Translations under genes and position numbers: made by a program
The notes under the pieces: model-generated
Databases searched by the model: none
Seen by the model: only the letters and a program-made list of their open reading frames with translations
What the model was told of the DNA's origin: nothing
NCBI RefSeq assembly: GCF_000010625.1
Contig: NC_010296.1
Location: forward strand, 30,001-62,000
Direction: 5' to 3'
DNA length: 32,000 nt
Source of the DNA: Microcystis aeruginosa NIES-843
GTDB taxonomy: Bacteria; Cyanobacteriota; Cyanobacteriia; Cyanobacteriales; Microcystaceae
Shown here: positions 2,938-22,235 of the stretch, in pieces
Layout of the letters: each line of letters begins with the position of its first letter
Position numbering within the stretch: position 1 is the first letter of the stretch

Positions 2938-3057
2938 GGGTGCTAGAAGACTTAGATTCAGGGAGATAAACCCGAAAATCTGTTAAAAATATAAGATGCT
3001 AAAAAGTCTGCGCTATAATACTCGATTAGGATGATATAAAGGTAATCAGGAGAAGCG

Positions 3058-3342
3058 ATGAACACTATCCAACTGACACCAGAAATAGAAGATTTGATTG
3101 CTCAACAAATTAAAACAGGAAAATATCAAGATGATTTAGCCGTTATTCAAGAGGGATTGCGTTTATTGGCAGAAAGAGACAGAATTTACCGAGGAAGATT
3201 TGAAGAATTGAAACGGGAAGTTATGATTGGCGTTGAGGAATTAAGACGACAGGAAGGAATTAATGCCGAAGAGGTTTTTTCAGAATTAGAAGAGGATTTA
3301 CAACAAATAGAGGCTAAGGGTTTCCCGATGAGTCAGAAATAA
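3058..3342 (+). CDS. parD: ParD-like antitoxin
   Basis: 94 aa, with MNTIQLTPEIEDLIAQQIKTGKYQ...GLRLL typical of ParD. Its stop overlaps the start of the ParE gene (ATAATG). Confidence 0.7.
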   Translation: MNTIQLTPEIEDLIAQQIKTGKYQDDLAVIQEGLRLLAERDRIYRGRFEELKREVMIGVEELRRQEGINAEEVFSELEEDLQQIEAKGFPMSQK

Positions 3343-3638
3343 TGTCAAAGATTATTTTCTCACCCTCAGCTAGATTGGATTTAAAGCAAGTTAATAGTTA
3401 CTTGGCTGGGAAAAATCCGCAAGCTGCTAGAATTTTAAAAGAAAAAATCCAACAGGCTTGTAAAAAATTAGCTAAATTCCCCAATCTGGGACGTAGGCGC
3501 GATGAGTTAATCCCTAGATTACGAAGTTTTCCAGTAGAAGATTATCTGATATTTTATTTCCCTCTTGAAAACGGAATTGAAATCGCAAGAGTAGTCAGTG
3601 GATATAGAGATTTAGATGCTATGTTTGATGTTGATTAA
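3342..3638 (+). CDS. parE: RelE/ParE-family toxin
   Basis: 98 aa, with FSPSARLDL...FPNLGRRRDEL...YLIFYFPLENGIEIARVVSG typical of ParE. Confidence 0.75.
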   Translation: MSKIIFSPSARLDLKQVNSYLAGKNPQAARILKEKIQQACKKLAKFPNLGRRRDELIPRLRSFPVEDYLIFYFPLENGIEIARVVSGYRDLDAMFDVD

Positions 3639-3728
3639 GAAAGCGATCGCATCAATCTAAGGGTGTCATTCTTCCCTGCTACCCAGTAGCATCGGCTGGG
3701 GGTTTCTTCGGGAAATTTAAGCTGATCT

Positions 3729-3779
3729 AAACTTAACAAAAACTCAACAAAAACTTCACAAAAACTTCACAAAAAACTA
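3729..3779 (+). repeat. Four phased ~11-bp A-tract repeats
   Basis: CTTAACAAAAA, CTCAACAAAAA, CTTCACAAAAA, CTTCACAAAAAA, directly 5' of TTGACA. Confidence 0.8.
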
Positions 3780-3814
3780 TTGACAAGAAGATGTCAAGGC
3801 CGGTTAATTAAATT
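3780..3814 (+). promoter_or_regulatory. Putative promoter/operator of precursor gene 2
   Basis: Perfect palindrome TTGACA-AGAAGA-TGTCAA (3780-3797), followed by the TTAATTAAATTAATTAA block. GGAG RBS at 3828. Confidence 0.35.
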
Positions 3815-3841
3815 AATTAACATCATTGGAGCATTTACCCC

Positions 3842-3997
3842 ATGAAAACCAAAAAACTGACACCCCGCAATGCTGCTCCTGTCCAACGGGAAAACACCGC
3901 TACCGTCTCTCGTGATGGCAATGCGATTGCGATGATCGCTCCGCTTTGGGATTTGGTAAGGTGGGGCGCTCCTTTTGCGGGAGACGACGCAGAGTAA
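3842..3997 (+). CDS. pirE: Cyanobactin precursor peptide 2, 51 aa (absent from the ORF track)
   Basis: Hand translation: MKTKKLTPRNAAPVQRENTATVSRDGNAIAMIAPLWDLVRWGAPFAGDDAE. The leader differs from copy 1 at one residue. Confidence 0.85.
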   Translation: MKTKKLTPRNAAPVQRENTATVSRDGNAIAMIAPLWDLVRWGAPFAGDDAE

Positions 3998-4124
3998 TCC
4001 CCCTGATTCTAGCACGAACCTCAAATCAGGTCAAAAGTCTTTTTCTCCTTGCCAAGGCGCACGGTTAGCCTCAAGGAATTGACGTACAACCCTAGTTAAT
4101 TCGGGAGTTTCGGATACCGGGCAC

Positions 4125-4188
4125 GGAGAAGAAGCACCGGGGGCAGGGAAGCAGTTTCTCTTCTCGGTTCCCCTTTTCCTTGACTCAC
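4125..4188 (+). repeat. Purine/pyrimidine-tract element, copy c
   Basis: Homologous to copies a and b. Followed by TTGACT-N17-TTAGGT. Confidence 0.6.
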
Positions 4189-4345
4189 GAGTGTTAGAAG
4201 ACTTAGGTTCAGGGAGATGAACCCCAGCCAACAGCTTACTACCCCAGTGTGATCGGGTTGGGGTCTTCTTCTCCTTCGGTTTGTACCTTTGACAGAATTA
4301 GATGAGCTATGATTAAAGTAAGATTTACTTATTCATACATCACAA

Positions 4346-4738
4346 ATGACTCAGATTACTATTAATTTACCAGTCAGTTTACTTGAATCAGCCCAATGTT
4401 TAGGAAAGGCTACAGAACGAGAGTTATCAGAGGTTTTAATTGATACCTTAGAAATCATTTTGCCTACCTTTAATAATCTCTCAGCTGTGGGCAATCATCT
4501 TGAAGTTTCCAATCTTTTAGATTCCGAAGTTATTGAATTAGCTAATTCAAAAATGGATGCTGTTCAGAATCAACGCTTAGGAGAGTTACAAGCTAAGGGA
4601 AAAAATACGGGCTTAACCGAAGCCGAAGGCTATGAATTATTAGTTTTAATCTCAATTTACCAAATGGGACAATTAAGAAAGTCAATAGCCTTAGCTGAAG
4701 CCGTTAAACGAGGTTTGAGAGAGCCTTTAATACCATGA
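4346..4738 (+). CDS. Hypothetical protein, possibly RHH-like, translationally coupled to the HNH gene
   Basis: 130-aa ORF. The N-terminal MTQITINLPVSLLESA resembles a ribbon-helix-helix beta strand. ATGA overlap with the next gene. Confidence 0.35.
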   Translation: MTQITINLPVSLLESAQCLGKATERELSEVLIDTLEIILPTFNNLSAVGNHLEVSNLLDSEVIELANSKMDAVQNQRLGELQAKGKNTGLTEAEGYELLVLISIYQMGQLRKSIALAEAVKRGLREPLIP

Positions 4739-5178
4739 GTTTTCTCACAGAAACCTTACGCCAAAAAGTTAAACAACGGGCAGGAAATCGCTGTGAATAT
4801 TGCCTAAGTCACCAGGATTATATTATGGGGAGATTACAAATTGATCATATCCAACCTTTAGCTAAAGGTGGTGCTAATACAGAAGATAATTTATGTTTAG
4901 CTTGTGAATTATGTAATCAATATAAATGGACTCAAACTGAAGCTATTGATCCCAAATCTGAGGTGTTGGTTTCCTTATTTAATCCTCGCCTTCAAAAATG
5001 GCAAGAACATTTTACTTGGACTCAAGAAGGAACGGAAATTATGGGAGTAACGGCTTGTGGTCGAGCAACAATTGTAGCTTTAAGATTAAATAGTAATCTG
5101 GCTGTTATTGTGCGTAAAAATTGGGTTAAAGCTGGTTGGCATCCACCTAATTTGCAGACGGAATCTCACCTTACCTAA
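4735..5178 (+). CDS. HNH endonuclease
   Basis: CEYC...QIDHIQPLAKGGANTEDNLCLACELCNQYK is an HNH/zinc-finger motif. Confidence 0.75.
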   Translation: MSFLTETLRQKVKQRAGNRCEYCLSHQDYIMGRLQIDHIQPLAKGGANTEDNLCLACELCNQYKWTQTEAIDPKSEVLVSLFNPRLQKWQEHFTWTQEGTEIMGVTACGRATIVALRLNSNLAVIVRKNWVKAGWHPPNLQTESHLT

Positions 5179-5211
5179 AATATTCCTTTAACAATCTAAA
5201 AACTGGCCATT

Positions 5212-6108
5212 ATGATAGTTGCTGACATTCAAAAAAGCTCCCTCAAAGAGCAAAGGCTACAATTTATTCGTAACCATCAACAAGCTTTCGATGTTGAGCC
5301 GATTTATCCTCTACGGCTGTTTGAAGATTTCGTGATGGGGGTTGAGGGCGATTGTACTATTCAAGCCTCTTGTAAGATAGAATTAGATCAACTCATTGCC
5401 TCAAGGTTTATGCTCTTTTTTAAAGATAAAGCTCAAGAATGGCAAAACTATCTAGCGCAGTCTTTAGCTTTTTTTCGGCAAGTTGAAAACCGAGTTGGTG
5501 TTAAATTAGACTATTCTTTATTACAGCAGTTCTTAGGACTTAATTTTAATTTCAGTAAAATCACGGTTTTCAGTACGGGTATTGATTTAAGGACTAATCT
5601 TGCTGATTCTAGTTTAAAAATGCACATCAGGCTAAAAGATTATCCTGAAAAAATCAACCAAGCGTTATTGTTAACCAGTGATAGTGATGATTTAATAGCT
5701 GTACGAGATTTTCTTTCCATTGTCGGCTTTGATTTCTATTTTGATGGCCGTAGTGCGATCAAAATTTACCCTGAAGTTGCAGAAACAGACTTTTTTAAAC
5801 CAGAAACTCAAGACAAAGTATGGCGACATCTTCCCAAATTTGTTTTAGAACCTCTTAAAGCAACAAGCTTATTTGGTTTTGGCTTTTCCAAAACAAATAA
5901 TAACCCAGTGCTTTACTACAGGCTCAAAAATCGTCAAGATTTAACCAATTACTTCAAGCTTAATGATACCGCCCAAAGAGTTCATAGCTTTTATCAGCAT
6001 CAAGATATTTTATCTAGTGTGTGGTTAGGTACAGCCCAACAAGAATTAGAAAAAACGAGAATTGAAAATGTTAGACTTTACTATTATAAACTCTTTGGTA
6101 AATTGTAG
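5212..6108 (+). CDS. pirF: Cyanobactin prenyltransferase (PatF/LynF/TruF family, ABBA fold)
   Basis: RLQFIRNHQQAFDVEPIYPLRLFEDFVMGVEGDCTIQASCKIE aligns with recalled PatF (RLQFVRTHQEAFDVKPTFPLPLFEE...EGSCSVESSCQVE). Similar length, 298 aa. Confidence 0.85.
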   Translation: MIVADIQKSSLKEQRLQFIRNHQQAFDVEPIYPLRLFEDFVMGVEGDCTIQASCKIELDQLIASRFMLFFKDKAQEWQNYLAQSLAFFRQVENRVGVKLDYSLLQQFLGLNFNFSKITVFSTGIDLRTNLADSSLKMHIRLKDYPEKINQALLLTSDSDDLIAVRDFLSIVGFDFYFDGRSAIKIYPEVAETDFFKPETQDKVWRHLPKFVLEPLKATSLFGFGFSKTNNNPVLYYRLKNRQDLTNYFKLNDTAQRVHSFYQHQDILSSVWLGTAQQELEKTRIENVRLYYYKLFGKL

Positions 6109-6187: not shown

Positions 6188-6520
6188 ATGCAAAGTATTC
6201 ACGCCTTAAAACAACTCTATGAGCTTGATGACTCTCAATGGCTAGGAGAAACCATTAGCTTGCTTAGAAATCATCAATTTCAACAGCTAGACTTAGAACA
6301 TTTAATCGAGGAATTAGAGGATTTGGGCAAAGAAAAGAAAAATGCGGTAGCCAGTCTTTTAGAACAGGTTATCCGCCATTTATTATTACTACAATACTGG
6401 ACAAAAGAAACAGAATATAATACAATTAATTGGCAGGAAGAAATTTATAACTTCCGTACTCAATTAAAGCGAGAGATGACGACCAATCTCCGCAACTATT
6501 TAGAGGAAATCCCTAGATGA
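6188..6520 (+). CDS. DUF29 protein, C-terminally truncated paralogue
   Basis: About 95% nucleotide identity to 7228-7545 over ~295 bp, then it ends in an ATGA overlap with the Uma2 gene. Confidence 0.7.
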   Translation: MQSIHALKQLYELDDSQWLGETISLLRNHQFQQLDLEHLIEELEDLGKEKKNAVASLLEQVIRHLLLLQYWTKETEYNTINWQEEIYNFRTQLKREMTTNLRNYLEEIPR

Positions 6521-7185
6521 TAGCAACTACAACAATTTCTCCTCAATTAACCATTCCACGCCTAGAAAATGGGGATAAGCTTACTCGTCGTGAATTCGAG
6601 CGTAGATATAAGGCTATGCCAAATCTAAAAAAAGCAGAACTCATTGAAGGAATTGTTTATATTATGGCTTCTCCCCTAAGAATTACGAATCATGGCAACC
6701 CTCATGCGCGTATTATTACTTGGCTAGGTAACTATTGGTCAAGTACACCCGGAACCGAATTAGGTGATAATTGTACGGTTCGTCTTGATACTGACAATGA
6801 ACCTCAACCCGATGCACTATTAAGAATTAAAAATGGTGGACAATCAACGATTAGTGAGGATGGTTATGTCGAAGGTGCGCCAGAGTTAATCGTCGAAATT
6901 GCAGCGAGTACCGTCTCCCTTGACTTACATCAAAAACTTAATGTTTATCGCCGTAACCAAGTGCAAGAATATCTAGTCTGGCGAGTTGAAGATGGAGAAT
7001 TTGATTGGTTTAGATTAACCAATGAAGAATATATTAAACTTGAACCGAACTCAGAAGGGATAATTTGTTCCCAGATCTTCCCTGGATTATGGTTAGATAG
7101 GGATGCCTTATTAGCCGGTGACTTAGCCAAGGTTTTAGAGGTTTTGCAATTAGGAATAGCTACGCTCAAACATCAATCTAGTTAG
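6517..7185 (+). CDS. Uma2-family (DUF820) endonuclease
   Basis: GAPELIVEIAASTVSLDLHQKLNVYRRNQVQEYLVW is the PD-(D/E)XK-like Uma2 core. Confidence 0.75.
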   Translation: MIATTTISPQLTIPRLENGDKLTRREFERRYKAMPNLKKAELIEGIVYIMASPLRITNHGNPHARIITWLGNYWSSTPGTELGDNCTVRLDTDNEPQPDALLRIKNGGQSTISEDGYVEGAPELIVEIAASTVSLDLHQKLNVYRRNQVQEYLVWRVEDGEFDWFRLTNEEYIKLEPNSEGIICSQIFPGLWLDRDALLAGDLAKVLEVLQLGIATLKHQSS

Positions 7186-7227: not shown

Positions 7228-7674
7228 ATGCTAGGTGTTCATCAATTAAAACAACTCTACGAGCTTGATGACTCTCAATGGCTAGGAGAAACCATTAGCT
7301 TGCTTAGAAATCATCAATTTCAACAGCTAGACTTAGAACATTTAATCGAGGAATTAGAGGATTTGGGCAAAGAAAAGAAAAATGCGGTAGCCAGTCTTTT
7401 AGAACAGGTTATCCGCCATTTATTATTACTGCAATACTGGACTAAGGAGGCAGAATATAATATAATTCATTGGCAGGAAGAAATCTATAACTTCCGTACT
7501 CAATTAAGGCGAAAAATGACGGCTAATCTCCGTAATTATTTAGAAGAAGAATTAAACTATATTTATGAAGATGCGTTAGGTTTCGTCAAAATCAAAACAG
7601 CGAATACTGTGATTTTTCCCTCTCAATGTCCTTACTCACTAGAACAATTACTAGATCGCGATTGGTTGCCATAA
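7228..7674 (+). CDS. DUF29 protein (full length)
   Basis: LYELDDSQWLGETISLLRNHQFQQLDLEHLIEELEDLGKEKKNAV is the DUF29 signature. Confidence 0.75.
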   Translation: MLGVHQLKQLYELDDSQWLGETISLLRNHQFQQLDLEHLIEELEDLGKEKKNAVASLLEQVIRHLLLLQYWTKEAEYNIIHWQEEIYNFRTQLRRKMTANLRNYLEEELNYIYEDALGFVKIKTANTVIFPSQCPYSLEQLLDRDWLP

Positions 7675-7709
7675 AAATTAATTAAACAACAAAAAGAGAT
7701 GAAGAAATT

Positions 7710-8279
7710 ATGTTAATCACAAAACCCCGCTTTCAAACCTTTGCCGAATATCTACAATATGAGGATAATTCAGAGGAATCTTATGAATTATTTAACGGAG
7801 AATTGGTAGAAATGCCACCAGAATCAGGACTTAACTTTCAAATTGCTAATCGTCTTTTTCTAGTCTTTGCTTTAATGCTAGGAACCGATAGAGTCAGAGG
7901 ACATGGTTTAGAATTAGAAGTGAGAGGCGAACCGAAAAACCGTTATCCTGACTTAACCATTATTCGAGAAGAACATATTCAATTACTCTCCCAGAGAAAT
8001 ACGATTCTTCTTTCCATGTCACCCCCCTTATTAGTCCTTGAAGTGGTTAGTCCGGGGGAAATCCAAAGAGAGAGAGATTACATCGCCAAAAGAATTCAAT
8101 ATCAAGATTGTGGGATTCCCGAATACTGGATCGTTGACCCCCAAACTCAAACCATTTTAGTCTTAGAATTAAGAGGAAATACTTATACAAAAATCGGTAA
8201 TTTTAGCAATGATGACTTAGTAAAATCTCCTGGATTCAAAGAATTAAACTTAAAGGTTTTTGATGTATTTAATTCTTAA
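7710..8279 (+). CDS. Uma2-family (DUF820) endonuclease
   Basis: PPLLVLEVVSPGEIQRERDYIAKRIQYQDCGIPEYWIVDP is the Uma2 core. Confidence 0.75.
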   Translation: MLITKPRFQTFAEYLQYEDNSEESYELFNGELVEMPPESGLNFQIANRLFLVFALMLGTDRVRGHGLELEVRGEPKNRYPDLTIIREEHIQLLSQRNTILLSMSPPLLVLEVVSPGEIQRERDYIAKRIQYQDCGIPEYWIVDPQTQTILVLELRGNTYTKIGNFSNDDLVKSPGFKELNLKVFDVFNS

Positions 8280-8625
8280 TTTTATCGGTTAACCCAAGAA
8301 TTAAAAAATGATGAACGGCTTAACTATTCCCGGATTAAAAGAACTACAAAAACAAACGAAAGGCGCATCAGAAATAACCGTCGCCATTCTTGATGGTGTA
8401 GTTGATACCGACCATCCCTGCTTCAATGGGGCAGACCTAACCCGTTTACCCACCCTCGTCCAGCATCAAGCCACCGCGGGGCAAATGTCCACTCACGGAA
8501 CCCATATTGCCAGCCTCATCTTCGCACAACCCAATAGCGACATCCAAGGTATTGCCCCCCAGTGTCGAGGCCTACTCGTACCCGTCTTCTCCGACGATAA
8601 CCGTAAACTCTCCCAACTCGATTTA
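8222..8625 (+). repeat. 404-bp direct repeat, left copy (Uma2 3' end + intergenic + first 106 codons of pirA)
   Basis: Matches 13087-13489, with one indel in an A-run and a few substitutions. Confidence 0.9.
8308..8625 (+). pseudogene. pirA: Orphan 5' fragment of the PatA-type protease gene, truncated by an IS
   Basis: Identical over 106 aa to the start of 13172..14089. After 8625 the ORF reads into the IS terminus (LDFGQRKTDL...). Confidence 0.85.
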
Positions 8626-8789: not shown

Positions 8790-11048
8790 CCCACATTCCG
8801 CACCCTAAGTGTCACAACGTCTCAAAAGAGGAAGGGGCGCGAGTCAAAATACTTATCTAGAGGAGTGAGTTGGCGGCAAGCTGCCGGCAACTAAGCCGAA
8901 AATTTCAGAGTTCCCCCAGTCATTCTCAATAAACAGTGCTTGTTGAGAATGACTAGGCAATCAGACTTAACATCTAGGGGGAGATGTTCCAGTTGCTCGC
9001 TTTGTTTTGTCACCCCTTGAAGTCAATCCATCTGGTCAAGATAAGAGATAATATTCTTGGCAAGGTTTGGGGAAAAATCTCAAAATGTTGCGCCTCTCAT
9101 CCGTTAAGTTGCTAATCTTTTGATTGTCTTGAATACGTAGGAGATGAATCCCTTGAAAGTTCTGAAATATCCAGCGTAATGTTGGTCGGTCAGTTAACTT
9201 ACCCAACGGATTTTTCAGTCCCGTCTCCTGCTGTTTTAAACTTAAACGAAGTTGTCTTTGACCAATAGTATAAACCAGCAGGCACAAGCCCATGAGCATG
9301 GCCATGACCTCGATTCTATGGGGAGATTTGAGAAAGACACTGTGGGCAAAAAAGCAGGGGTCTTTGAGAAAAGAAAATCCTCTTTCCGGAGCTTGTTGCC
9401 CTTTATATTTTTTGAGTATATCCTCACTGCTTAATCGTTGTTTCTCCAAATCGTTAGTTGCTAAAACGAATCGTCCTGCTCGTTTCTTTAGCCTCTCAAT
9501 GGCGGTCAAATTCAACTCTAATTTGGCTTGAACTTGATAGCTTTGAGAGGGTAAATCGTCTTTTGATTTGAGTTTTGACCCCTGGGACTCAGGCGGAATG
9601 AGATTGACTTTAATCTCCGTTAACTGATGAGATTTTAAGGAGTCAGATAATCCTTTGGCTATCGCCAACGCCACCGCTCTATTCTCAAATTCTCTTCGGG
9701 ATAGTTGCCGGATTTTTTCTTGGGCAGAATTCTTTTCCTGCTCGATTTTTTTCTCTAATTTTTTCAAGTCTGATTCTTGTCTAGCTTGACTTTCAACTAG
9801 CAACCATCTTTGTTCTATCCCCCCATAGTTAGAGATGGTTTCCCGCCAGGAATAACCCGGTATTTCTGAATCGGTTAACTCTTTTTCTGAGATGCTATCA
9901 ACCAACTCTTGAGCCTCTTTAATGCTTAATGGTACTCGAGACAACCAACGCATTTCTTTCATTAGTTTTAAATTCTCTTTGCTATAGAGGGCGCTATCGC
10001 CGACTATTAAACTGTCAAAGTCAACTTGTTTTTTAAATTCTCGGGCGATTTGACCAAAAACCGCTTTGTCCGCTTCATTTCCGTCCCCTACTTTCAGGAA
10101 TAAAGGTACATCTCCATCCCCACTTACGATTAAGTCAATCATAAATTGTTTTAAGTCAGGTCTTCGGTCGCGGGAGTATCCGTAGGTAATTTTTATTGGC
10201 TGTTGTCTGGTTTCAATTTCTTCTCCCACTGCTCCTGATTTCAGGATTTCTACTGTTGGGTATTCCTTGTTATATTCTCCTTCTACTGATAGAGAAGTCG
10301 AATCTAAATGGGAGTTCTCGGTTGCTACACCAAATTTTTTCACGGCCGCTAAACTAATCAGTAGGAAAATGACCGAAACATTAAGTTGATAAAGTTTGTC
10401 CATTACTCGACCAATTTTATCATCATTCAGGTGTTTTGGTTCGATGCCCTCTCCCAGCAGATGTTCGGTTGCTTTATCTTCAAAAAATTGAGGAAATAAA
10501 TACAAGGCTCGGGAGACAAATCCCAATCCATTCAGGATAATTGCTTTCACGACTTGCCCCGCTGTGACAATTTCTCCTCGCTCAATTGAGACTTGTTCGT
10601 TGATAATTTCAACGATTCCTATTTCATCGATAATTCCGGCTACTAATCCCAGATGGTCTAGATTTTTGACTTCAATTTCTGTTGATTGATTCATGGTCGA
10701 ACAGTCCACTCGCCTCAGTTTTCCAACAATTCCTATTGGGACTTAAACAAAACCTAAGACAAAAATAGCTTCAAACCCATACAGAGAGATGACTTAAGTT
10801 CAAACAACACTCAATCTAGTCTTCTTGAGGGTTTCAGTCATTTTTTTCTTATTTACCTCTTTCCCTTATTCAGAGGGTTTTTCAGTGCTTTTATGGCTCG
10901 AAAAGTGTCTAAGTCCCACTATTTTTTCATAATTAGGGTCTCAAAGCCCCCCTAGCGGCCACCGAGAAAACCTTCACCAGCTAAGTATTTTTACTCAAGT
11001 CTCTGGCGGGGGACAGCTTATGTGACAGTTGAGGGTGCGGAATGTGGG
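8790..11048 (-). mobile_element. IS1634-family (IS4 superfamily) element nested in the outer IS (2259 bp)
   Basis: Inverted repeats CCCACATTCCGCACCCT at both ends. 6-bp TSD TTTTTG at 8784-8789 and 11049-11054. Confidence 0.8.
9036..10709 (-). CDS. IS1634 family transposase
   Basis: 557 aa. The N-terminus NLDHLGLVAGIIDEIGIVEIIN and overall architecture are typical of IS1634/IS4 transposases. Confidence 0.8.
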   Translation of the reverse strand: MDCSTMNQSTEIEVKNLDHLGLVAGIIDEIGIVEIINEQVSIERGEIVTAGQVVKAIILNGLGFVSRALYLFPQFFEDKATEHLLGEGIEPKHLNDDKIGRVMDKLYQLNVSVIFLLISLAAVKKFGVATENSHLDSTSLSVEGEYNKEYPTVEILKSGAVGEEIETRQQPIKITYGYSRDRRPDLKQFMIDLIVSGDGDVPLFLKVGDGNEADKAVFGQIAREFKKQVDFDSLIVGDSALYSKENLKLMKEMRWLSRVPLSIKEAQELVDSISEKELTDSEIPGYSWRETISNYGGIEQRWLLVESQARQESDLKKLEKKIEQEKNSAQEKIRQLSRREFENRAVALAIAKGLSDSLKSHQLTEIKVNLIPPESQGSKLKSKDDLPSQSYQVQAKLELNLTAIERLKKRAGRFVLATNDLEKQRLSSEDILKKYKGQQAPERGFSFLKDPCFFAHSVFLKSPHRIEVMAMLMGLCLLVYTIGQRQLRLSLKQQETGLKNPLGKLTDRPTLRWIFQNFQGIHLLRIQDNQKISNLTDERRNILRFFPKPCQEYYLLS

Positions 11049-12540
11049 TTTTTGTCTGTTTTTTGATAACTTGATGGCGGGTTCGTGGCACTTTTTTATA
11101 ACCTTTAATTCGTCCAGCCGAATAACCTCGGCGTTTGGGAGATTTGACCAAAGTGCCAATCTCCGAAATTATTCTGTAAAAGTCTCTTTGAACCAAGCTG
11201 GGTGTAATTTCTACCGATTCACTTTTTTTCAAATACTGCTCCCAAGGACGGGGTAAAACCAGAGCTAATTTCCTAGTTGCCCATAAATTTACAGCAGCTA
11301 ATAGGGTGAGTTGAACCCAATTTTCCTCATGATTAACTTCAGGGGTATAATAGGCATTCAGCAACAATTTTTGTTGACCAAATCGAAAAAGATGTTCCAG
11401 ATCATAACGTTGTCCATAAGCCTCATAACATTCTTGAAGACTTAACTCATAACGACGAGAACCAATAAGGATAAGCCACATCGGTTTCCAGACGGCTTTA
11501 CCAGTTTCATCACTGACAATAATTTGTAGTAAGGTAAAGGGATGAGAGTGCATTTCATAGTCGGATGTTCCCCTCATTAGCATTTGTTTCCAACCAGAGA
11601 TTTTGAGATTAAGTTCACGTCCCCTTTTAGTCGTAAAAGTTGATTGAATGATTTCATCTGGTTCGAGCCAAGTTGTCTCATCTTTGAGGTCAAATTTATC
11701 CCCATACCAACGGGGATGACCCGGTTGTTTGGGAGAATAATCTTCAGGAATAAATTGCCGATAAAAGACCCGATTACTTCTCCCTCGTGTGAGGGTAACT
11801 AAATTATTTTGCTTGACTTGTTCTCCAAGAAAACCTCGCTGACTATAGAGACTATCAGCGACTAAAACTGATAATTTATCTTTCCAGGGAACTGAGGAAT
11901 GGTTCAGGATTTTTTTGACTTGGTTACTGGCCACAGAAATGTCTTTTTCTCCTGAAGATACTCGTTGTCCTGACAGGGGAATTGCCCAAGGCACGTTTCC
12001 CGTTTCACTTCGTTCTGGCAGAGCAGCAATTACTGAATAAGCATGACCAATATTGATGGGTTTATTGCCTTTGATAGTATTGGGTTGATAGATATACTTT
12101 TTGTCTTCTAGAGTCGCCGAATAAGGTCTTGGACAAGGAGTTACATCTACTCCAAATAAATAGAATTGTCTAGAAACGGGGGGAGGAATAGTAGCCGAAA
12201 CGACTGATAATAAGCTATCAAATGCTTTTTGATAATTGTCATTTGTTGGACTTGGTAAAAACTCTTGAATCCCTTTATATAAACTGTTATAATCTCGACG
12301 AAATAAAGGGTTCAAAGATAATTCGGCAACTGTTGAAGCTTGTCGATTCGACGAGAGGGAATCCAGCAATTCCATGACCGTCTCGCGTCTCGAACCAAGG
12401 GCGTTATAGAGTTGCCTTCTCCACTTCAAAAGTTCTTCGACATCAGGACAAATTTCTTGACTTTTCATCGGAAAAAATATATGAGAAATTAATCTGCGTG
12501 AAATATACGCAAATATTCTTATAATATAAGAAGCCCCCAA
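10981..12540 (-). CDS. DDE transposase of the outer IS (family uncertain), with its 3' end replaced by the IS1634 terminus
   Basis: 519-aa ORF. The last 22 codons come from the nested IS inverted repeat. Removing the nested IS gives a 506-aa ORF ending KQTKSKKEKMKVP*. Confidence 0.65.
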   Translation of the reverse strand: MGASYIIRIFAYISRRLISHIFFPMKSQEICPDVEELLKWRRQLYNALGSRRETVMELLDSLSSNRQASTVAELSLNPLFRRDYNSLYKGIQEFLPSPTNDNYQKAFDSLLSVVSATIPPPVSRQFYLFGVDVTPCPRPYSATLEDKKYIYQPNTIKGNKPINIGHAYSVIAALPERSETGNVPWAIPLSGQRVSSGEKDISVASNQVKKILNHSSVPWKDKLSVLVADSLYSQRGFLGEQVKQNNLVTLTRGRSNRVFYRQFIPEDYSPKQPGHPRWYGDKFDLKDETTWLEPDEIIQSTFTTKRGRELNLKISGWKQMLMRGTSDYEMHSHPFTLLQIIVSDETGKAVWKPMWLILIGSRRYELSLQECYEAYGQRYDLEHLFRFGQQKLLLNAYYTPEVNHEENWVQLTLLAAVNLWATRKLALVLPRPWEQYLKKSESVEITPSLVQRDFYRIISEIGTLVKSPKRRGYSAGRIKGYKKVPRTRHQVIKKQTKTHIPHPQLSHKLSPARDLSKNT

Positions 12541-13086: not shown

Positions 13087-13489
13087 AAAATCTCCTGGAT
13101 TCAAAGAATTAAACTTAAAGGTTTTTGATGTATTTAATTCTTAATTTTATCGGTTAACCCAAGAATTAAAAATGATGAACGGCTTAACTATTCCCGGATT
13201 AAAAGAACTACAAAAACAAACGAAAGGCGCATCAGAAATAACCGTCGCCATTCTCGATGGTGTAGTTGATACCGACCATCCCTGCTTCAACGGGGCAGAC
13301 CTAACCCGTTTACCCACCCTCGTCCAGCATCAAGCCACCGCCGGGCAAATGTCCACCCACGGAACCCATATTGCCAGCCTCATCTTCGCACAACCCAATA
13401 GCGACATCCAAGGTATTGCCCCCCAGTGTCGAGGCCTACTCGTACCCGTCTTCTCCGACGATAACCGTAAACTCTCCCAACTCGATTTA
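13087..13489 (+). repeat. Direct repeat, right copy (403 bp)
   Basis: See 8222-8625. Confidence 0.9.
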
Positions 13490-14037
13490 GCGAGGGCGAT
13501 TGAACAAGCCGCCGAAAAAGGGGCAAAAGTGATTAATATTAGCGGCGGGACCCTCACTGATATGGGAGAAGCCGAAGACTGGCTAATTCGTGCCGTCGAG
13601 ATGTGTAACGAGAGAAATATTCTTCTCGTTGCTGCTGCTGGCAATGATGGCTGTGAATGCCTCCAAGTTCCAGCAGCCCTTCCCGCCGTCCTCGCGGTGG
13701 GTGCTGTTGATGCTAGAGGCCATCCCCTCGACTTTAGTAATTGGGGGGAAACCTACCAAAGCCAAGGCATCCTTGCCCCTGGAGAAAACATCTTAGGGGC
13801 AAAACCCGGAGGCGGGACTGTGCAACTGAGTGGGACCAGCTTCGCCGCGCCCATTGTGGCCGGAGTAGCCGCCTTATTACTCAGCTTGCAGGTGCAGCGG
13901 GGAGAAACCCCCAATCCTCACGCAGTCCGGGAGGCAATACTAAAAAGCGCCCTCCCCTGCCAATATGCAGACAGCGAAAATGAACCAAAATGTTTAGCCG
14001 GAGTATTGAACATTTCTGGGGCAATTAAACAACTAAT
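13172..14037 (+). pseudogene. pirA: PatA-type cyanobactin N-terminal protease, subtilisin domain (5' part of the interrupted gene)
   Basis: Catalytic triad contexts AILDGVVD, HGTHIASL and GTSFAAP. Long collinear match to recalled PatA (GIAPQCRGL.VP.FSDD...QLDLAR.IE...INISGG...LLVAAAGN.GC.CL.VPAALPAVLAVGA). Confidence 0.9.
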
Positions 14038-14224
14038 GGGACTTAAACGCCAAATAAAGATCAAATCGAGTATAATCGTTAAAGAGTAAGCACTTTACGT
14101 TGAAAGATCAGCGATGAAAGAGACAACCCCAGCCGCGATGCCCCCATGCTTTGACCGATGGTGTCGGCGGTTTGACAATTGCTTCAAAAACGAAGCGCAA
14201 AAAAACGGCTTCAGACAATATTTA

Positions 14225-15222
14225 GGGTCTGCTGAAAAAGTTTTTCCTAGGGGCAGGGTGTAGGGTGTGGGGTGTGGTGCGATTCGTTGGCTAGAAACTA
14301 GACAGTAAGACGTTTAGAGGATTAGCCGCTTGGTAAATGTAGTACCTTGATAACTTTATAACCCTACAGGTGCGGGTTAGTAATAACCTTAGTCCTGTCC
14401 TCTAGATGCCTAGAGTGACGGCATTTCCTGCTGCTTTAGACTTGGTACATCTGAGGTAGTGAGCGAGGAAAAAAAAGCGGTATCTGATAGCCTAAATCAG
14501 AAACCCGTTGAGCCAGAACCTATGGATAGCCCTGGGGCGAAGATACGAATTAACCATCGTCAACACCCACGAGCCAAAAGGCTGACAGGCTCGAAACAAA
14601 AGTTAACAGAGTTGGGGCTGATAGCTCATACCACTATCAGTAAGGCATTCCCGTTACTCTGTTGTGGACAGTATCATCCTAAGGGTTCAACCAATGGTTA
14701 TAGGGAACGAAGTAACCCTGATTGACTCTGCCCGTTCGGGGCAGTAGGAAACCATCCGCAAGTCAATAGAGGGAGAGGATGTCCTTAAAAGCCAAGGCTT
14801 TGAGTAATATCAAAGATATGCTGACAAAGGACGGGTAACTAGGAAGTCTAAGCAACAATCAACGGTCATATACGCCCTAAAACCAACAATCTTGTCTGGT
14901 GGGGATACAGCCAAGAGGGTTGAATAGACAAGGAAATAATAATTCCCATTATTATTCTACTAATGACAGTAGCCTAGTTACTCAGGAGCCGGATACGGCG
15001 AAAGTCGTAAGTCCGGTTTTGAAGCAGGGGGTGGGAAGGCGACTTCCTGCTCTACTGTAACGGGTGTGGGGTTTGACCGATTTTGAGGGGGTCAATTACC
15101 TAATTTTCAGGGAAAAAGTCCCTGAATTTACCCCTGATCACTCCCATATCTGGTACTTTTTGAGGGGAAAAAAGTCCAAAAGTCTTATCCAACAAGGTTT
15201 TTAGATTTATTCAGCCAGCCCT
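14225..15222 (+). mobile_element. MITE (about 213 bp) carrying a group II intron
   Basis: Ends GGGTCTGCTGAA ... TTCAGCCAGCCCT. 5-bp TSD ATTTA (14220-14224 and 15223-15227). Same family as 27072-27496. Confidence 0.75.
14277..15061 (+). ncRNA. ORF-less group II intron (785 nt)
   Basis: 5' GUGCG. Domain V at 14986-15019 (GAGCCGGAUACGGCGAAAGUCGUAAGUCCGGUUU) has the AGC triad, a 2-nt bulge and a GAAA loop. Domain VI has a bulged A 7 nt upstream of the last intron nucleotide. The EBS1 loop CAUACC (14627-14632) and EBS2 ACACCC (14563-14568) complement the 5' exon GGGUGU-G-GGUGUG. Confidence 0.8.
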
Positions 15223-16404
15223 ATTTAGGAGGATTATTAGGGGAAAGTGAGAGGAAAAACCTCACTCAAATGGCCAATAATGCCGTCGGAGTAGTTTATA
15301 ACCGATTACATCACTTTTTGACCGAATCTCCCTGGTCAGACCGTCAGGTGAATGAATGTCGGTTGCAAGTGATGAACCAATGCCGCCAGACGCAAATCCC
15401 CCGAGGATTTTCCCTGATTGTCGATGACTCAGGACATCGAAAAAGTGGCAATCTGACCGCCGGAGTTGGCAGGCAGTACCTAGGAGAAATTGGCAAGACA
15501 GACAACGGAATAGTCGCCGTCACTACCCATCTCTACGACGGCAAAAAAAGTGTCCCCCTAGACATTGAAATTTATCAACCGGCTAGTTCCTTAGCCGAGG
15601 GGAAAGAAGACAAAGAATTTAAGAAGAAACCAGAGATAGCGATAGATTTAATTGACCGGAGCTTAACCAGAGGCTATCGACCGAAAATCGTCTTAATAGA
15701 TGCTGGTTATGGCAACAACACAAATTTTCTCAAAGCCCTGGAAGAAAGAAAGCTAAAATACTTAGGAGGATTGGCAAAAAATCGAAAAGTAATTATTGAA
15801 AAAGAAGGGGGTGTGGAAGAAACAATCCAGCTTGAGCAACTAGCAAAAAGCCTATCAGAAAAGGATTGGGAGAAAATCACCCTAAATCTAGATAAAGAAA
15901 AAACGGTTTGGGTAGCGGTATTCAGAGCGAAAATATCTCAACTAGAAGGAGAAAGGAACTTGGCGATCGTCATGAATGCAAGTTCAATGGAAAAAGCCAC
16001 AGAGGTGGACTATTTCATCACCAATGTAGTTGAGGCAGATACAGTAACAGCTTCGTGGATAGTGAGGACTTACACCGAAAGAAATTGGGTGGAAGTATTC
16101 TACCGAGAAGCCAAAGGATGGTTAGGGTTAAGGGAATATCAAGTCAGGGATAAACGAAGCTTACTTCGTCATTTTATCCTGGTGTTTTGTGCCTATACAT
16201 TTATCCTGTGGCATAAGTTAACTGGGGGATTGCAAAGGCAGTGGGCGAATCGACCTTTAAACACTTTTGTGGAAGCCTTGGAAGCTTTTCGGACAGCGAT
16301 GTCTTTCCGTTTCTTTGAGTGGCTGACCGAGAATCGGGATGTGTTTGCCGCTTACAAAGCCAGTTTAGGCTTTGTTTGGGCTTGAAATTTGTTTAAGTCC
16401 CAAT

Positions 16405-17488
16405 AACAGGAGAAACCATGTCCGAATCTGTGGAAACCCAAGCAACAGTAGAAGCATCAGGCTGTGGCTGCGGTGGTACGCCCGAAACCCCTGAGGCTGA
16501 ACGCCAAAAACTCGAACTGAGTGCCGCAACTAGCGCACCGGTAATTCCCGTCGCCCAAATTCCCAATCCTGTCATCACCTCTCAAGGAGTATCTATGCCC
16601 GAAACCACTAATAAATCTGTTACCCCTAGCCAAGCTGCTGAACCTGCTGGCGGAATCGTCTATGCCATTGGCAGCTTGGGCTATGACTTCGGCTCCGAAG
16701 CCCGTCGGGACACATTTAAACAACTGATGCCGACAGCGGTAATTGGTGGTATTGAAGTTCCCTCTAATCCCTACGATGCCCGTCAGATGGTGGATTACCT
16801 GGCTGACAACCTCTCGGAAGCTAAATCCTTAATTTGGACCCTGAACCTGGAACTTACGCCAATTTACGCCATTGAACCCCTTGGCTCTTTTTCCCGCGAA
16901 GTTTATGCGGCTTTACAGGAACTTCTTTCGGGACAAGTGCAAGCAGAAGACAGCCCCGAATATATCCAGCGTGTTAGTATTCCTGGACGGATTACTGGAC
17001 GAACAGTACGCCTGTTCTCAGGACAAGTTGTTCCCGTCATTGAACCGGATAGCCCCCGGGGAATTTATGGTTGGCACGTTAATACTTTAGTCAGTGCGGC
17101 AATCGAAGCTGTTGGTGCAGAACAAACAGAAGCCCAAGAAAGCCAAATGCGCCGCACTTTGAGTAGTTTCCTCAACCGCATCTACTACGATTTACGCAAT
17201 TTAGGGCAAACTTCCCAAGACCGCGCCCTCAATTTTGCTGCGACTAACGCTTTCCAAGCAGCGCAAACTTTTTCTGAGGCTGTGGGTGCGGGGATGGAAC
17301 TCGATAGTATTAATGTTTCTAAGAGTCCTTTCTGTCGGCTGGATAGCGATTGTTGGGACGTACAGTTAAAATTCTTCGACCCGGAAAATAGCCGCCGCGC
17401 TCGTAAAGTCTTCCGTTTTACCATTGATGTCAGTGATTTAATTCCTGTCACCTTGGGCGAAGTTCGTTCCTGGTCTTCTCCTTATTAG
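16405..17488 (+). pseudogene. pirA: PatA-type protease, linker and C-terminal PatA/PatG DUF domain (3' part of the interrupted gene)
   Basis: VYAIGSLGYDFGSEARRDTFKQLMP...FRFTIDVSD...VTLGEVRSW is paralogous to the pirG C-terminus. It is in frame with 13172-14037 after IS excision. Confidence 0.85.
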
Positions 17489-19280: not shown

Positions 19281-20072
19281 TTAATCTTCAGGTTCTATCC
19301 CCAAGGCCCTTAACTGTTCCGCTAGGCGATCGGCTCGTTGTCGTTCCTGTTCGGCTCGTTGTCGTTCCCGTTCAGTAGATTCCTGGGAAGTTAACAACAA
19401 GTTACCTTCCCCATCCCACCAGCGAAGCCAGGGAAAGAATTGATTTTGGTATTCTCCCTGCCAAATTCCTAACTCTACCTTTAAAGGAACAATGGGATAA
19501 TGACCGCGCTGATTAGGAGTCATTTTTTGGTAACGACCATTAACTAACTGGTACATCTCGATCTGGGCCTTGTTAACTTCATAAATCCCATAAAAAGGAA
19601 TTTGAATCGCTCGCTCATAGATCCAAAATTTACCCTTAACAGGCGTTTTATCCCGTTCTTCTTCACCATTGCCCGAGACAAATTCTAAGGCAATGACTGG
19701 TTCAATGGTTTCTTTCCACATCACGAAGGAACGCCGGACTTGACCCTCAATCGTTGTGGGGACATGGGGAACATAAAACCAATCGGGAGCAACAGCACCC
19801 TTTTCTAGGGATTCTGGATACTCTGGCAATCGCCAATAAATCCCACAATCTCGACCCAGACAGTAATTACCGTCAGGATGTAATTTGTCCAAAATGGGCG
19901 TGATCGTATCCGTTAAAAGGTCTGCCTGGGGAGGCTCTTGATAGTTTTTCACAAAACTTCCATCTTTATCGGGGAGTTGGGTGTGATCGGGTAAAGGGGA
20001 ATCGCAATAAACCGTTGCAGAAGGGTCCTGAATTGTGGTTGAGGGTTGTGCCGTTGGGGTCATTGAACTCAT
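19281..20072 (-). CDS. Uma2-family (DUF820) endonuclease with a C-terminal coiled-coil tail
   Basis: PDWFYVPHV...EPVIALEFVSG core and an ERERQRAEQERQRADRLAEQLRALGIEP tail, both common in cyanobacterial Uma2 proteins. Confidence 0.75.
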   Translation of the reverse strand: MSSMTPTAQPSTTIQDPSATVYCDSPLPDHTQLPDKDGSFVKNYQEPPQADLLTDTITPILDKLHPDGNYCLGRDCGIYWRLPEYPESLEKGAVAPDWFYVPHVPTTIEGQVRRSFVMWKETIEPVIALEFVSGNGEEERDKTPVKGKFWIYERAIQIPFYGIYEVNKAQIEMYQLVNGRYQKMTPNQRGHYPIVPLKVELGIWQGEYQNQFFPWLRWWDGEGNLLLTSQESTERERQRAEQERQRADRLAEQLRALGIEPED

Positions 20073-20139: not shown

Positions 20140-22235
20140 ATGCCTGATCTCAATGCTATCCCCGGAATGACCGCTCTTCGCTCCCAGACAAAAGGCGATC
20201 CACGCATCAAAATCGCCGTTCTTGATGGACCGATTGACTTAGATTGCGCCTGCTTTCAAGGAGCAAATATTACCCGCCTTGATCCCTATTGGTCGCAAGA
20301 ATTTCCCATCGATCCGCAACACTTACAAGCCTTTTTAGATGTAGAAAAAAGTGCCAAAAGTGATGAAGAAAAAGGTGATATGTTGAAAGAAGCGATTCCC
20401 GATGAAAACATCCTCCAGAGTTTGCATTTGCGCTTCCATGCTAACCATATTATCAGCACCATTTGCGGCCAGCCAGATTCACCTGTAGAAGGGATTGCTC
20501 CTAACGCTACTGTAATTAATATTCCCATCGCCTATAGCAACGAAGATTTTATTAATCCCCTCAATCTTTCTCGCGCAATTAGTACCGCTATTGAACAGGG
20601 AGTTAATATTATCCATTGTGCCGCTTGTCATCCAACTCAAAGCGGATAGCTCACGAATTTATTGATAAAGCAATTCGTCAAGCTCAAGCTAATAATATCC
20701 TGGTGATTGCCCCCGGAGGTAATGATAAGGGAGAGTGTTGGTGTGTTCCTGCGGTATTAGAAAATGTCCTGGCGGTGGGAGCGATGAAAGATACAGGCGA
20801 GCCATTTAAATTTAGTAATTTTGGTGGTAAATATGCAACTCAAGGGATTCTCGCTCCAGGAGAGAATATTTTAGGCGCTCAACCCGCAACTGATGACCCC
20901 ATTCGCAAAAAAGGGACTAGCTGCGCCGCTCCCATTGTGACAGGAACAGCCGCTTTATTGATGAGTTTACAATTAGAACAGGGTTTATCTCCTGATGCTG
21001 AAGCAGTAAGGGCCGCCTTGATTAATAGTGCCATCCCCTGCGATCCTAATGAAGTAGAAGAACCAGAACGCTGTTTATTAGGAAAAATTAATATTGCGGG
21101 TGCTTATGAACTGCTGACGGGAGAGAAATTACAAACTGTTGAAGCGGATAACAATTTGTCGAATAATATCATAGAATCGGCGGTAATTCCGATGACAGTG
21201 ACAACCTCGGTTATCCCATCTAATACAACCGAGATGGCGACTCAGGGAATAACTATAACCCCCCCAACAGCAGCGACAATAGAACTGGCGATCGCTCCTA
21301 GCAATGCTTCAGAAAATGTTTCCTCAACTGGATTAATACAAAATAATCAAACAAATAAAAATATTGTCTTTAATAGTGTCGTTCCTAGTCAACGTTCAAA
21401 CCTCGTTTATGTGTTAGGAACTTTAGGTTATGACTTCGGAACAGAAGCGCGTCGGGACACCTTTAAACAATTAATGCCAAGCATCACGATCGATAATCTT
21501 GAATTACCATCCAATCCCTACGATGCGCGGCAAATGGTAGATTATTTAGAAAGTAATCTATCAGAAACTAAGTCTTTAATTTGGACAGTCAATTTAGAAC
21601 TAACTCCCATATATGCGATTAAACCAGTGGGAGCTTTTGCCGCCGACATTTATCAAGTCATCCAATATATGTTAGCGGGTCAAATATTACCAGAATCTGA
21701 CGAAGATTATGTGGAAAGGGTGAGTATCCCCGGTATGCTGACCGAGGAAACTGTGAAACTTTTTTCTGGTCAAATTGTTCCCGTCATCAAGGTTAATAGT
21801 CCCAGGGGAATGTATGGCTGGAAAGTTAATACTTTGATTGAATCAGCGCTAGAAACTGTTAGCGCAGAACATGAAATCGCCGATGAAGCGAGGATGCGGC
21901 GTTCTCTGACCAGTTTCTTGAATCGCATTTATTATGACTTACGCAATGTCGGACAAATCGCCCGGGATCGCGCTTTAAATTTTGCAGCTACTAACGCTTT
22001 TCAAGCTGTACAAACCTTCTCCCAAGCAGTAGCGCTGGGAATGGAACTACACAGCATTGAAGTGGAAAAAAGCCCTTTTTGTCGCTATGGTAGTGAATGC
22101 TGGGATGTGAAATTAAAATTCTTCGATCCCGAAAATGGTCTGCGGGCCAAACGAGTTTTTCGCTTTACCATTGATGTCAGCGATCGCACCCCTGTAACTT
22201 TAGGTGAAGTGCGTTCTTGGGCTGTTTCTAAATAG
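20140..22235 (+). pseudogene. pirG: PatG-type cyanobactin macrocyclase (subtilisin + capping insert + C-terminal DUF), no oxidase domain, 1-nt frameshift near 20645
   Basis: Two overlapping ORFs, 20140-20649 and 20616-22235. HCAACHPTQSG* continues in the -1 frame as IAHEFIDKAIRQAQANNILVIAPGGN...GTSCAAP. This matches recalled PatG (NIIHCAFCRPTQTSEGEEILVQAIKK...). Confidence 0.85.

Follow-up and report, generated by a model that had tools for sequence, protein, structure and literature searches.

A non-autonomous group II intron of Microcystis aeruginosa that probably homes into tandem GGGTGTR arrays with a protein supplied in trans

We analysed a stretch of 32,000 nucleotides (nt) from Microcystis aeruginosa NIES-843 (NC_010296.1, positions 30,001 to 62,000; hereafter the window, in whose own coordinates positions are given unless a contig is named) and characterized a group II intron of 785 nt that carries no open reading frame (ORF) for an intron-encoded protein (IEP) and is inserted in a tandem array of the heptamer GGGTGTR. 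In the window this array is part of a MITE (miniature inverted-repeat transposable element), which itself interrupts an insertion sequence (IS). On the basis of current results, we consider it likely that the element is a non-autonomous intron of the chloroplast-like (CL)/IIB lineage which retrohomes into GGGTGTR arrays by means of an IEP supplied in trans.

The intron starts with GTGCG (GUGCG in the RNA, 14277-14281) and its last nucleotides are CTGTAAC, stopping at 15061 (final AAC), as expected from the GUGYG/AY rule for group II introns; the same termini were found across 10 full copies (784-785 nt). The Rfam model for domains V and VI (RF00029) matched 14984-15061 over its whole length (model positions 1-77 of 77) at 55 bits (E 2e-8), the gathering score being 40, and this was the sole gathering-level Rfam match across the 32-kb window. 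The bulged (branch-point) A of domain VI is 15054, 7 nt ahead of the final intron base, and the minimum free energy (MFE) of the folded 785-nt RNA had a z score of -5.1 relative to dinucleotide shuffles. None of the Rfam models for domains I-IV reached gathering level, with a partial match to RF01999 (D1D4-2) at 14423-14490 scoring 26.7 bits against the 36 needed. Within domain I, a UAUGG/CCUAAG tetraloop receptor would be the expected zeta partner of the GAAA loop of domain V, a label that we presume to apply here from what is established for group II introns. Domain II lacks a segment, GCUAACCGGAUGC, but its own stems were perfect nonetheless. ORFs within the element did not exceed 88 amino acids (aa) and had no Pfam domain on record, and a related IEP used as a tblastn query found no match anywhere in the window. 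A prediction made earlier from the letters alone (the original prediction) had described the GUGCG start, the parts of domain V, the bulged A of domain VI and a tiny domain IV devoid of a reverse transcriptase (RT) ORF, all of which were recovered here and, for the catalytic domains, are borne out by Rfam. Taken together with the covariation of domains I and II in 31 aligned lineage members (see below), the full-length RF00029 match confirms, at the level of sequence and predicted structure, that 14277-15061 is a complete ORF-less group II intron, and it would be expected to be competent for splicing.

Distant relatives of this intron were identified in plasmids of Nostocales by blastn. Two of them (retrieved loci and contigs are denoted by L-numbers) are complete in length and encode an IEP, namely L132 (Fremyella diplosiphon) and L136 (a strain of Aphanizomenonaceae), and both could be aligned with the Microcystis intron across domains I-III. 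A 5' 22-mer, GTGCGATTCGTTRGCTAGAAAC, is common to the Microcystis intron, L132, L136 and many metagenome loci. When metagenomes were scanned with it, 64 loci were obtained, of which seven were of the Microcystis 785-nt type and the other 57 were related introns that have different targets and in many cases are full length; the viral collection scanned with the same 22-mer gave no match. An alignment of 31 lineage members (A3) was used for consensus structure prediction with RNAalifold, which yielded 116 pairs; at 78 of these, compensatory double changes were seen. In the helices of domains I and II, 95.3% of the paired cells could form pairs compared with 81.1% after shuffling and 33-43% with slid partners, and the covariation score was 0.436 compared with 0.175 (shuffled) and 0.06-0.09 (slid); none of 500 shuffles reached the observed pairing. 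The IEPs of the relatives consist of RVT_N, RVT_1, GIIM and HNH domains, and their best match among solved structures was the TeI4h RT (6me0_C, E 3e-112), a member of CL/IIB1 (PMC2882425). Judging from these relatives and from the position of exon-binding site 3 (EBS3), the Microcystis intron appears to belong to the cyanobacterial CL/IIB lineage and, presumably, to CL/IIB1.

Some lineage members have unusual surroundings. L133 (3460-4660; 1129 nt with a partial RT remnant) and L146/L161 are situated inside domain V-like sequence, and L148 is located at the G-x-D-G motif of an RT gene. On the Crinalium plasmid L137, two domain V/VI matches 715 nt apart (2786-3579) may represent tandem ORF-less introns. 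In L132, the annotated RT coding sequence (4098-5921) crosses domains V and VI (5851-5927), so that ORF and catalytic sequence overlap unless the stop codon is mis-annotated. L146 was considered as a Microcystis contig and rejected, its 83-nt match to L139 being a tRNA gene.

The remains of an IEP gene could still be recognized in domain IV of the Microcystis intron. In local alignment with the ORF starts of L132 and L136, positions 14870-14911 correspond to the beginning of an IEP in which ATG is now ACG, followed by ..PKT.NNLVWW..S; the start ATATG-TCTAAAAC... of the relatives reads ATACGCCCTAAAAC... here. In addition, the last ~30 nt of domain IV match the segment that precedes domain V in the relatives, where the ORFs of L132 and L136 end. 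An IEP-encoding ancestor would have lost its domain IV ORF by deletion and left a non-autonomous intron, which now forms a long branch relative to the IEP-bearing lineage members. The same pattern, with ORF remnants around a domain IV deletion, has been reported for the ORF-less TeI3 introns (PMC2882425).

The preference for the heptamer could be examined through the exon-binding sites. EBS1 is CAUACC (14627-14632) in the loop of a hairpin and pairs at all six positions (one G-U) with intron-binding site 1 (IBS1, 14271-14276); EBS2 and EBS3 are listed in Table 1. We compared these sites in a set of 32 related cyanobacterial introns, permuting exons among introns. EBS1 matched the last 6 nt of its own exon at a mean of 5.53 of six positions (permuted 4.32 +/- 0.13), and the EBS2 position matched exon positions -13 to -9 at 4.41 of five (permuted 3.42 +/- 0.10); for either site, such a mean was not attained in any of 2000 permutations. 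Lineage examples of EBS1 and exon are GUCGCC/GGCGAC, UUUACC/GGUAAA, ACUACG/CGUAGU and AUGGUA/UACCAU, and the 2-nt gap between IBS2 and IBS1 (-8 and -7) is conserved through the related introns. In 18 of 22 lineage members, the base in the A3 column of EBS3 (column 660) can form a Watson-Crick pair with position +1 of the 3' exon. An EBS3-IBS3 pair, instead of a delta-delta' pair beside EBS1, defines subgroup IIB. The original prediction had assigned EBS1 and EBS2 and paired them with the heptamers of the MITE; these assignments hold, as both sites covary with their own 5' exons, although the target that it gave as 13 nt with a 1-nt spacer is in fact 14 nt with a 2-nt spacer (GGGTGT-GG-GGTGTG, 14263-14276).

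These pairings would allow the intron to read one repeat unit twice. EBS2 (ACACCC) would pair with GGGTGT of one heptamer, two nucleotides would be skipped, EBS1 (CAUACC) would pair with GGTGTG of the next, and the EBS3 C would pair with the G that opens the following heptamer. Two consecutive GGGTGTR units would be read in a staggered register, which would place the insertion exactly at a heptamer boundary on the G-rich strand. Nearly all of the recognized sequence would lie in the 5' exon, the sole 3' requirement being a G.

Further copies of the intron were collected from contigs encoding its 88-aa ORF or close homologues and from the seven metagenome loci. This ORF, located in domain I, is spurious and is often called by gene callers, with homologues named from M. 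viridis NIES-102 and M. aeruginosa; its use as a probe for a diverged parent returned only copies of the same element (82-98% identity). About 20 further copies were recovered, which differed by 0-2 nt save for one older subfamily. Relative to the window copy, the full copies had 0-2 differences, with the exception of L153 (~10 changes). When the copies were pooled, 16 different flanks could be distinguished on the 5' side and 11 on the 3' side. All 5' flanks ended in GGGTGT-R-GGGTGT-R, save one intron-intron junction; on the 3' side, +1 was G in 11 of 11 flanks and +1 to +3 were GGG in 10 of 11. Every copy was found in an array of GGGTGTG and GGGTGTA, MITE present or not. The MITE of the window carries the intron also in L153 and L128, and a related left end is present in L126, L129 and L205. 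On the other hand, the copies in L125, L127, L130, L139, L174 and L183 occupy free-standing intergenic arrays, mixed with other heptamers (for example, GGGAAGT, GGGCTGT and CTGATAA), with no MITE ends nearby. Since many copies sit in arrays without MITE ends, the homing target is therefore the heptamer array itself; the array that had been proposed as the homing site is correct, whereas the MITE as such is not the target. It had also been suggested that each MITE copy is a potential site. In agreement with this, the pairing motif GGGTGTNNGGTGTRG occurred seven times in the window compared with 0 expected, and five of the seven sites were perfect and unoccupied, in the two intron-free MITE copies (27103-27131 and 27196-27217).

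Two observations on copies and arrays should be added. The diverged subfamily of L153 and L203, seen in two independent sources, has the 3' half of the tetraloop receptor changed from AUCCUAAGGG to a AAUCAAAUACGG-like sequence with the 5' half unchanged, and is probably inactive. Other heptamer arrays were also observed, including CAGTTAT (x4.4, window 31945-31984) and, beside the G-rich arrays in the flanks of L126, L129 and L205, CTGATAA/CTGATCA, GGGCTGT and GGGAAGT; arrays of unlike heptamers tend to adjoin each other. CTGATAA/CTGATCA belongs to the TAACTGA family discussed previously (PMC4679880).

An alternative to retrohoming, which we consider improbable although it is the most serious one, is that the intron is an immobile relic: after a single entry into an array, its copies would all have arisen by DNA-level events, namely transposition of the MITE that carries it, larger duplications, and unequal crossing-over or gene conversion between the flanking heptamer arrays. 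The copies in the window, L128 and L153 share the same relative position in the same MITE family, which would fit transposition of a composite of MITE and intron, and the heptamers on both flanks could mediate recombination; recombination is also what the flanks of four contigs resemble (L129, L130, L131 and L138, see below), and no helper IEP was found on the window or on the retrieved Microcystis contigs. However, the copies differ in their surroundings, with no fewer than 11 different flanks on the 3' side and 15 different array flanks on the 5' side, and MITE ends are missing from many of them. In one 3' flank, GGGAGATTAAAT, heptamer-like sequence continues for just 3-5 nt beyond the intron, and recombination is implausible there because such 3' homology is too short; it is enough for EBS3, which needs only a G. 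Copies from different strains and samples are identical or 1-2 nt apart, which suggests recent spread.

Arrays with two copies are also informative in this respect. In L202 (3730-6838; the complete genome of M. viridis NIES-102, AP019314, at ~5.06 Mb), two copies are 21 nt apart in one array, the upstream one carrying two disruptions, a palindromic insert of 87 bp at intron position 171 and an IS (DDE_Tnp_1) that has a 17-nt duplication; L207 has the identical intron-21 nt-intron junction. Doubles with this spacing could reflect unequal crossing-over. In contrast, L204 (106-1673), which is the locus of the window (14100-15100) with the same IS sequence, MITE and array, contains two complete copies head to tail with 0 nt between them; a further contig was reported with this gene pattern. 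Heptamer-mediated crossing-over is excluded in this case because at least one heptamer would remain between the copies. Most simply, a second copy would have inserted at the junction of the 5' exon with the resident intron, whose first base, a G, satisfies IBS3. Moreover, A was present at position -15 in 10 of 11 used sites but in only 8 of 30 unused sites with perfect pairing in the same arrays (Fisher p = 3e-4; 0.007 after possibly related sites were dropped); the unused sites are equally repetitive, and recombination would be blind to -15. Thus, the doubly occupied arrays, the head-to-tail doublet and the A-15 enrichment argue for recent retrohoming.

A further possibility is that the intron moves without any IEP, either by self-splicing and reverse splicing with host factors or with the help of a free-standing maturase of the host. 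Some group II introns self-splice in vitro, the ribozyme core appears to be intact (RF00029 and covariation), and no IEP was found nearby. On the other hand, the insertion of group II introns into DNA requires reverse transcription. The A-15 bias also points to a protein partner in target recognition: position -15 lies outside the RNA pairings (an A there would face an A beside EBS2), and A-15 is the distal 5'-exon position selected by the TeI4h IEP (PMC2882425). Seven group II RTs have been reported in M. aeruginosa NIES-843, of which six are nearly identical to each other and possess an HNH domain (PMC8934634), so candidate helpers exist in Microcystis. We therefore regard a route without an IEP as very unlikely, and the intron would instead depend on a trans-acting IEP.

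Several searches were made for such a helper. When the L136 IEP was used as query against proteins, thousands of cyanobacterial IEPs with at most ~70% identity were obtained, none of the 120 listed being named Microcystis, and tblastn of plasmids with the lineage IEP gave no Microcystis record among the matches listed. Two abundant IEP clusters considered as possibly from Microcystis (P0079 and P0040) were rejected, as they had neither heptamers nor the lineage 22-mer. A semi-degenerate domain V pattern matched at least 120 loci of unrelated phyla in the genome collection, with no Microcystis among the matches listed; the pattern is too general, and these loci serve as a weak comparison set only. 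Within the window, a free-standing HNH endonuclease ORF of 147 aa (4735-5178) follows a 130-aa ORF without a Pfam match. It was rejected as an IEP remnant, having a generic HNH motif only (31% identity over 52 aa).

Finally, a chance or degenerate domain V/VI-like sequence without function amid repeats is next to impossible, for although the Rfam models for domains I-IV stay below gathering level and the element has a shortened domain II and lacks a few of the lineage pairs, RF00029 matches in full above its gathering score, homology to IEP-bearing introns extends across domains I-III, EBS1, EBS2 and EBS3 all fit the flanks, and the exact boundaries are kept in more than 10 copies.

It should be noted that a number of observations weigh against trans-mobilized retrohoming into the arrays. 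With regard to the ribozyme, the Microcystis intron keeps 90 of the 116 consensus pairs as standard pairs in the automatic alignment; on inspection, most of the others were local alignment shifts around good stems, and the true departures were two U-U pairs in one helix and the shortened domain II. With regard to the helper, neither the window nor any retrieved Microcystis contig had an IEP gene (tblastn with the lineage IEP), and over domains I-III none of the IEP-bearing relatives compared shares more than 62% identity with the intron (range 53-62%). Three sites have A at -1, an A-C mismatch to EBS1 for which EBS1 shows no compensation. Several copies are dead, through breakage by an IS or an altered tetraloop receptor: in L149 (3411-4555)/L181 an IS630/Tc1-like element of 1.1 kb, with a frameshifted transposase, has entered the copy near position 115, the L139 copy is broken after ~140 nt, and L203 has internal deletions. 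Most of the extra copies are metagenomic, and a 785-nt repeat may produce chimeric joins. In this context, L129, L130, L131 and L138 have a common 3' flank and differing 5' flanks, which may be assembly artefacts or real recombination between copies.

Considering all of the above, retrohoming with a protein supplied in trans still appears to be the best explanation. The RT/maturase would be provided by an IEP-encoding intron elsewhere in the cell, insertion would proceed by reverse splicing with cDNA synthesis, and the intron would be spreading, or would have spread very recently, wherever arrays occur, whether in the MaeMITE-like element, in related short elements or in free intergenic arrays. 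An occupied site would stay a target because the resident intron begins with G, which would give rise to head-to-tail doublets and arrays with two copies. A broader proposal is that this is the first described group II lineage specialized on a microsatellite-like tandem repeat, with staggered EBS reading, choice of register by a protein-read A-15 and reinsertion into occupied sites, and that the ORF-less intron is a hyperparasite kept by a Microcystis IEP; for this proposal, we see the chances as evenly balanced. Coordinates of the intron, its parts and its surroundings are given in Table 1.

Table 1. Features of the intron and of the elements that surround it (window coordinates)
Feature	Position	Strand	Description
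ORF-less group II intron, complete	14277-15061	+	785 nt; ends fixed by the full copies; Rfam match and fold in support
Domain I	14277-14716	+	starts at GUGCG; closing helix 5' UUCGUU x GAACGAA (~14706-14712)
Tetraloop receptor, 5' half	14519-14527	+	CCUAUGGAU; 11-nt motif UAUGG/CCUAAG, in covariation-supported helix (helices 14-16)
EBS2	14563-14568	+	ACACCC; 6/6 complementary to IBS2 14263-14268
EBS1 hairpin	14618-14640	+	stem CUGAUAG/CUAUCAG (14618-14624/14634-14640), loop CUCAUACCA
EBS3	14669	+	C in internal loop GGA-C-AG, A3 column 660; opposite G15062
Tetraloop receptor, 3' half	14676-14685	+	AUCCUAAGGG; covariation-supported helix
Domain II	14716-14773	+	lineage consensus helices 24-27; shorter than in relatives
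Domain III	14777-14839	+	from homology only (A3 columns ~830-900); MFE hairpins; no consensus pairs predicted
Domain IV	14840-14985	+	small, no ORF; IEP-start remnant 14870-14911
Domain V	14986-15019	+	34 nt; AGC triad, AA bulge, GAAA loop; RF04356 41.7 bits
Domain VI	15024-15058	+	GCGA loop; Rfam alignment and MFE structure
5'-exon target	14262-14276	+	A-15 14262; IBS2 GGGTGT 14263-14268; spacer GG 14269-14270; IBS1 GGTGTG 14271-14276
3'-exon part of heptamer array	15062-15075	+	G15062 = IBS3
MITE left arm	14225-14276	+	terminal inverted repeat GGGTCTGCTGAA..., then (GGGTGTR)3; aligned with intron-free copies 27072 and 27165
MITE right arm	15062-15221	+	ends ...TTCAGCCAGCCC; repeat family D3, 94% identity to 27210-27371
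Two intron-free MITE copies	27072-27495	+	b2 (27165-27369) nested in b1 (27072-27495) at TACCT
IS (IS701-like, DDE_5)	14038-16401	+	inverted repeats GGGACTTAAAC/GTTTAAGTCCC; Pfam DDE_5 E 4.5e-35
PatA/PatG-like cyanobactin protease gene	13172-17488	+	split by IS; Peptidase_S8 13172-14037, PatG_D + PatG_C 16418-17488 (Pfam)

In the window, four levels of nesting could be distinguished, with the intron in a MITE, the MITE in an IS and the IS in a gene for a cyanobactin protease. The inner levels had been proposed from the letters alone, and they agree with the terminal inverted repeats and target duplication of the MITE, the DDE_5 domain and the intron-free copies. The MITE extends over 14225-15221 including the intron and would be 212 bp without it, with TATTTA duplicated at 14219-14224 and 15222-15227. 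It is short and non-coding, has terminal inverted repeats and a 6-bp duplication, and is present in three copies in the window and in more on other Microcystis contigs. The duplications observed for it were TATTTA, TAGTTA and TACCT(G/A), which is roughly TAnnTA. By length alone, it is close to two elements described in NIES-843, MaeMITEa (219 bp) and MaeMITEe (212 bp) (PMC2779907). The corresponding TACCT in the MITE of the window locus is occupied by a different insertion in L204, which points to a hot spot. The transposase gene of the IS is split by the MITE into parts at 14114.. and 15270-16385. Without its insert, the IS would be ~1361 bp, comparable in size and family, the only features compared, to ISMae34 of NIES-843 (IS701 family, 1368 bp) (PMC2779907).

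Beyond these elements, the window is a cyanobactin-type natural-product locus (5212-6108, 8304-8603, 13172-14089, 16418-17488 and 20616-22235), which contains PatA/PatG-like S8 proteases with PatG_D and PatG_C and a DUF5838 protein. This locus is heavily disrupted, and the first 300 nt of the IS-split protease are duplicated together with 86 nt upstream (8222-8603 and 13087-13467, 99-100%). A pair of DUF29 and Uma2 genes occurs twice in tandem, at 6188-7185 and at 7228-8279 (93% identity over 300 nt), and a further Uma2 gene is located at 19281-20072 on the minus strand. At 2347-4224, a segment of ~1.25 kb is duplicated (2457-2666 versus 3718-3927 with 93% identity, plus other pairs); it holds 11-nt tandem repeats, AAACTTCACAA x4.8 (2458-2509) and AAACTTAACAA x4.3 (3729-3775), as well as G-rich GGGAGCAG motifs, and adjoins a ParDE toxin-antitoxin pair (3058-3638). 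Three more transposase genes were identified, namely ISL3 (676-1890), DUF4277 with DDE_Tnp_1 (9036-10709) and a second DDE_5 (10981-12540); the terminal repeat of the latter element (10734-10764) matches the end of the intron-bearing IS (16375-16405).

These results have several implications. Tandem heptamer repeats, which are abundant in cyanobacterial genomes, would be added to the known harmless landing sites of group II introns, that is, terminators, attC sites, IS elements and intergenic DNA. The arrays would also offer a natural case without target immunity, in which occupied sites are apparently hit again and introns come to lie side by side. The choice of register among sites with equivalent pairing tracks A-15, and the division of labour between RNA and protein in targeting is thus directly testable. 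For Microcystis genomics, a near-identical multi-copy element of 785 nt in repeats breaks assemblies, and its copies provide homology for rearrangements, including those of natural-product clusters such as the cyanobactin cluster of the window. Once an IEP is known, a compact 785-nt ribozyme with simple retargeting rules could be a scaffold for gene targeting.

The closest known system is found in Thermosynechococcus elongatus, in which the TeI3 introns without an ORF are mobilized in trans by the IEPs of TeI4 'driver' introns (Mohr et al. 2010, PMC2882425); the IS200-type ISEL1 hosts one TeI3 family, and another is found within other introns (PMC2882425). Like TeI3, the Microcystis intron is of the cyanobacterial CL/IIB type, has lost its ORF through a domain IV deletion that kept remnants, would need a trans-acting IEP for mobility, has G-14/G-13 of the 5' exon in IBS2 as well as the A-15 determinant, and is present as several near-identical copies at different sites with matching IBS. 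They differ in that TeI3 recognizes a unique sequence, whereas the Microcystis target is a tandem heptanucleotide repeat with several registers per array, in which two copies and head-to-tail doublets are observed. Moreover, the host is mesophilic, identity in domains I-III reaches only ~60% even with the nearest IEP-bearing relatives, and no cognate IEP-bearing sister was identified among them. The element also resembles EcI5 and TeI4h (CL/IIB1; structure 6ME0) in the use of EBS1, EBS2 and EBS3 together with a few protein-read bases upstream of IBS2, and the solved structure that best matches the lineage IEPs (RVT_N-RT-X-HNH) is the TeI4h RT. In contrast to those introns, it encodes no protein, and its CL/IIB1 placement comes from relatives and EBS3 position rather than from phylogeny.

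Specialization on a short and highly repeated genomic motif is shared with other group II introns. For IIC and IIC-attC introns, short repeated motifs (terminator hairpins and integron attC sites) offer many harmless landing sites. These introns recognize a DNA stem-loop with a short IBS1 and no EBS2, whereas the Microcystis intron would use IIB-type linear pairing over 12 + 1 nt in a microsatellite-like tandem array. RmInt1 resides in ISRm2011-2. Site-specific retrohoming into a multi-copy or conserved low-cost site is common to RmInt1, EcKTE56.groEL (PMC12584367) and, probably, the present element; however, the former two have their own IEP and one site per target, whereas the Microcystis intron is ORF-less and its target internally repetitive. 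The nesting of mobile elements recalls the twintrons of Trichodesmium (PMC4649490) and T. elongatus F3, and lineage members such as L133, L146 and L148 do lie inside introns. In the window, by contrast, the nesting is that of intron, MITE, IS and protease gene, and the L204 doublet is side by side, not an intron within an intron. ORF-less CL/IIB introns that multiply through IEPs acting in trans have been well documented for cyanobacteria, where they inhabit intergenic DNA, IS elements and other introns (PMC2882425; PMC4649490; PMC8919778). In the literature that could be searched, whose coverage is incomplete and which included no check of the Zimmerly intron database, we found no detailed account of Microcystis group II introns and no group II intron targeting a tandem heptanucleotide repeat. 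The mechanism is a standard one, and what is new is the niche, the way in which a single repeat unit is read twice in staggered fashion, the occupancy of arrays by more than one copy and the head-to-tail doublets.

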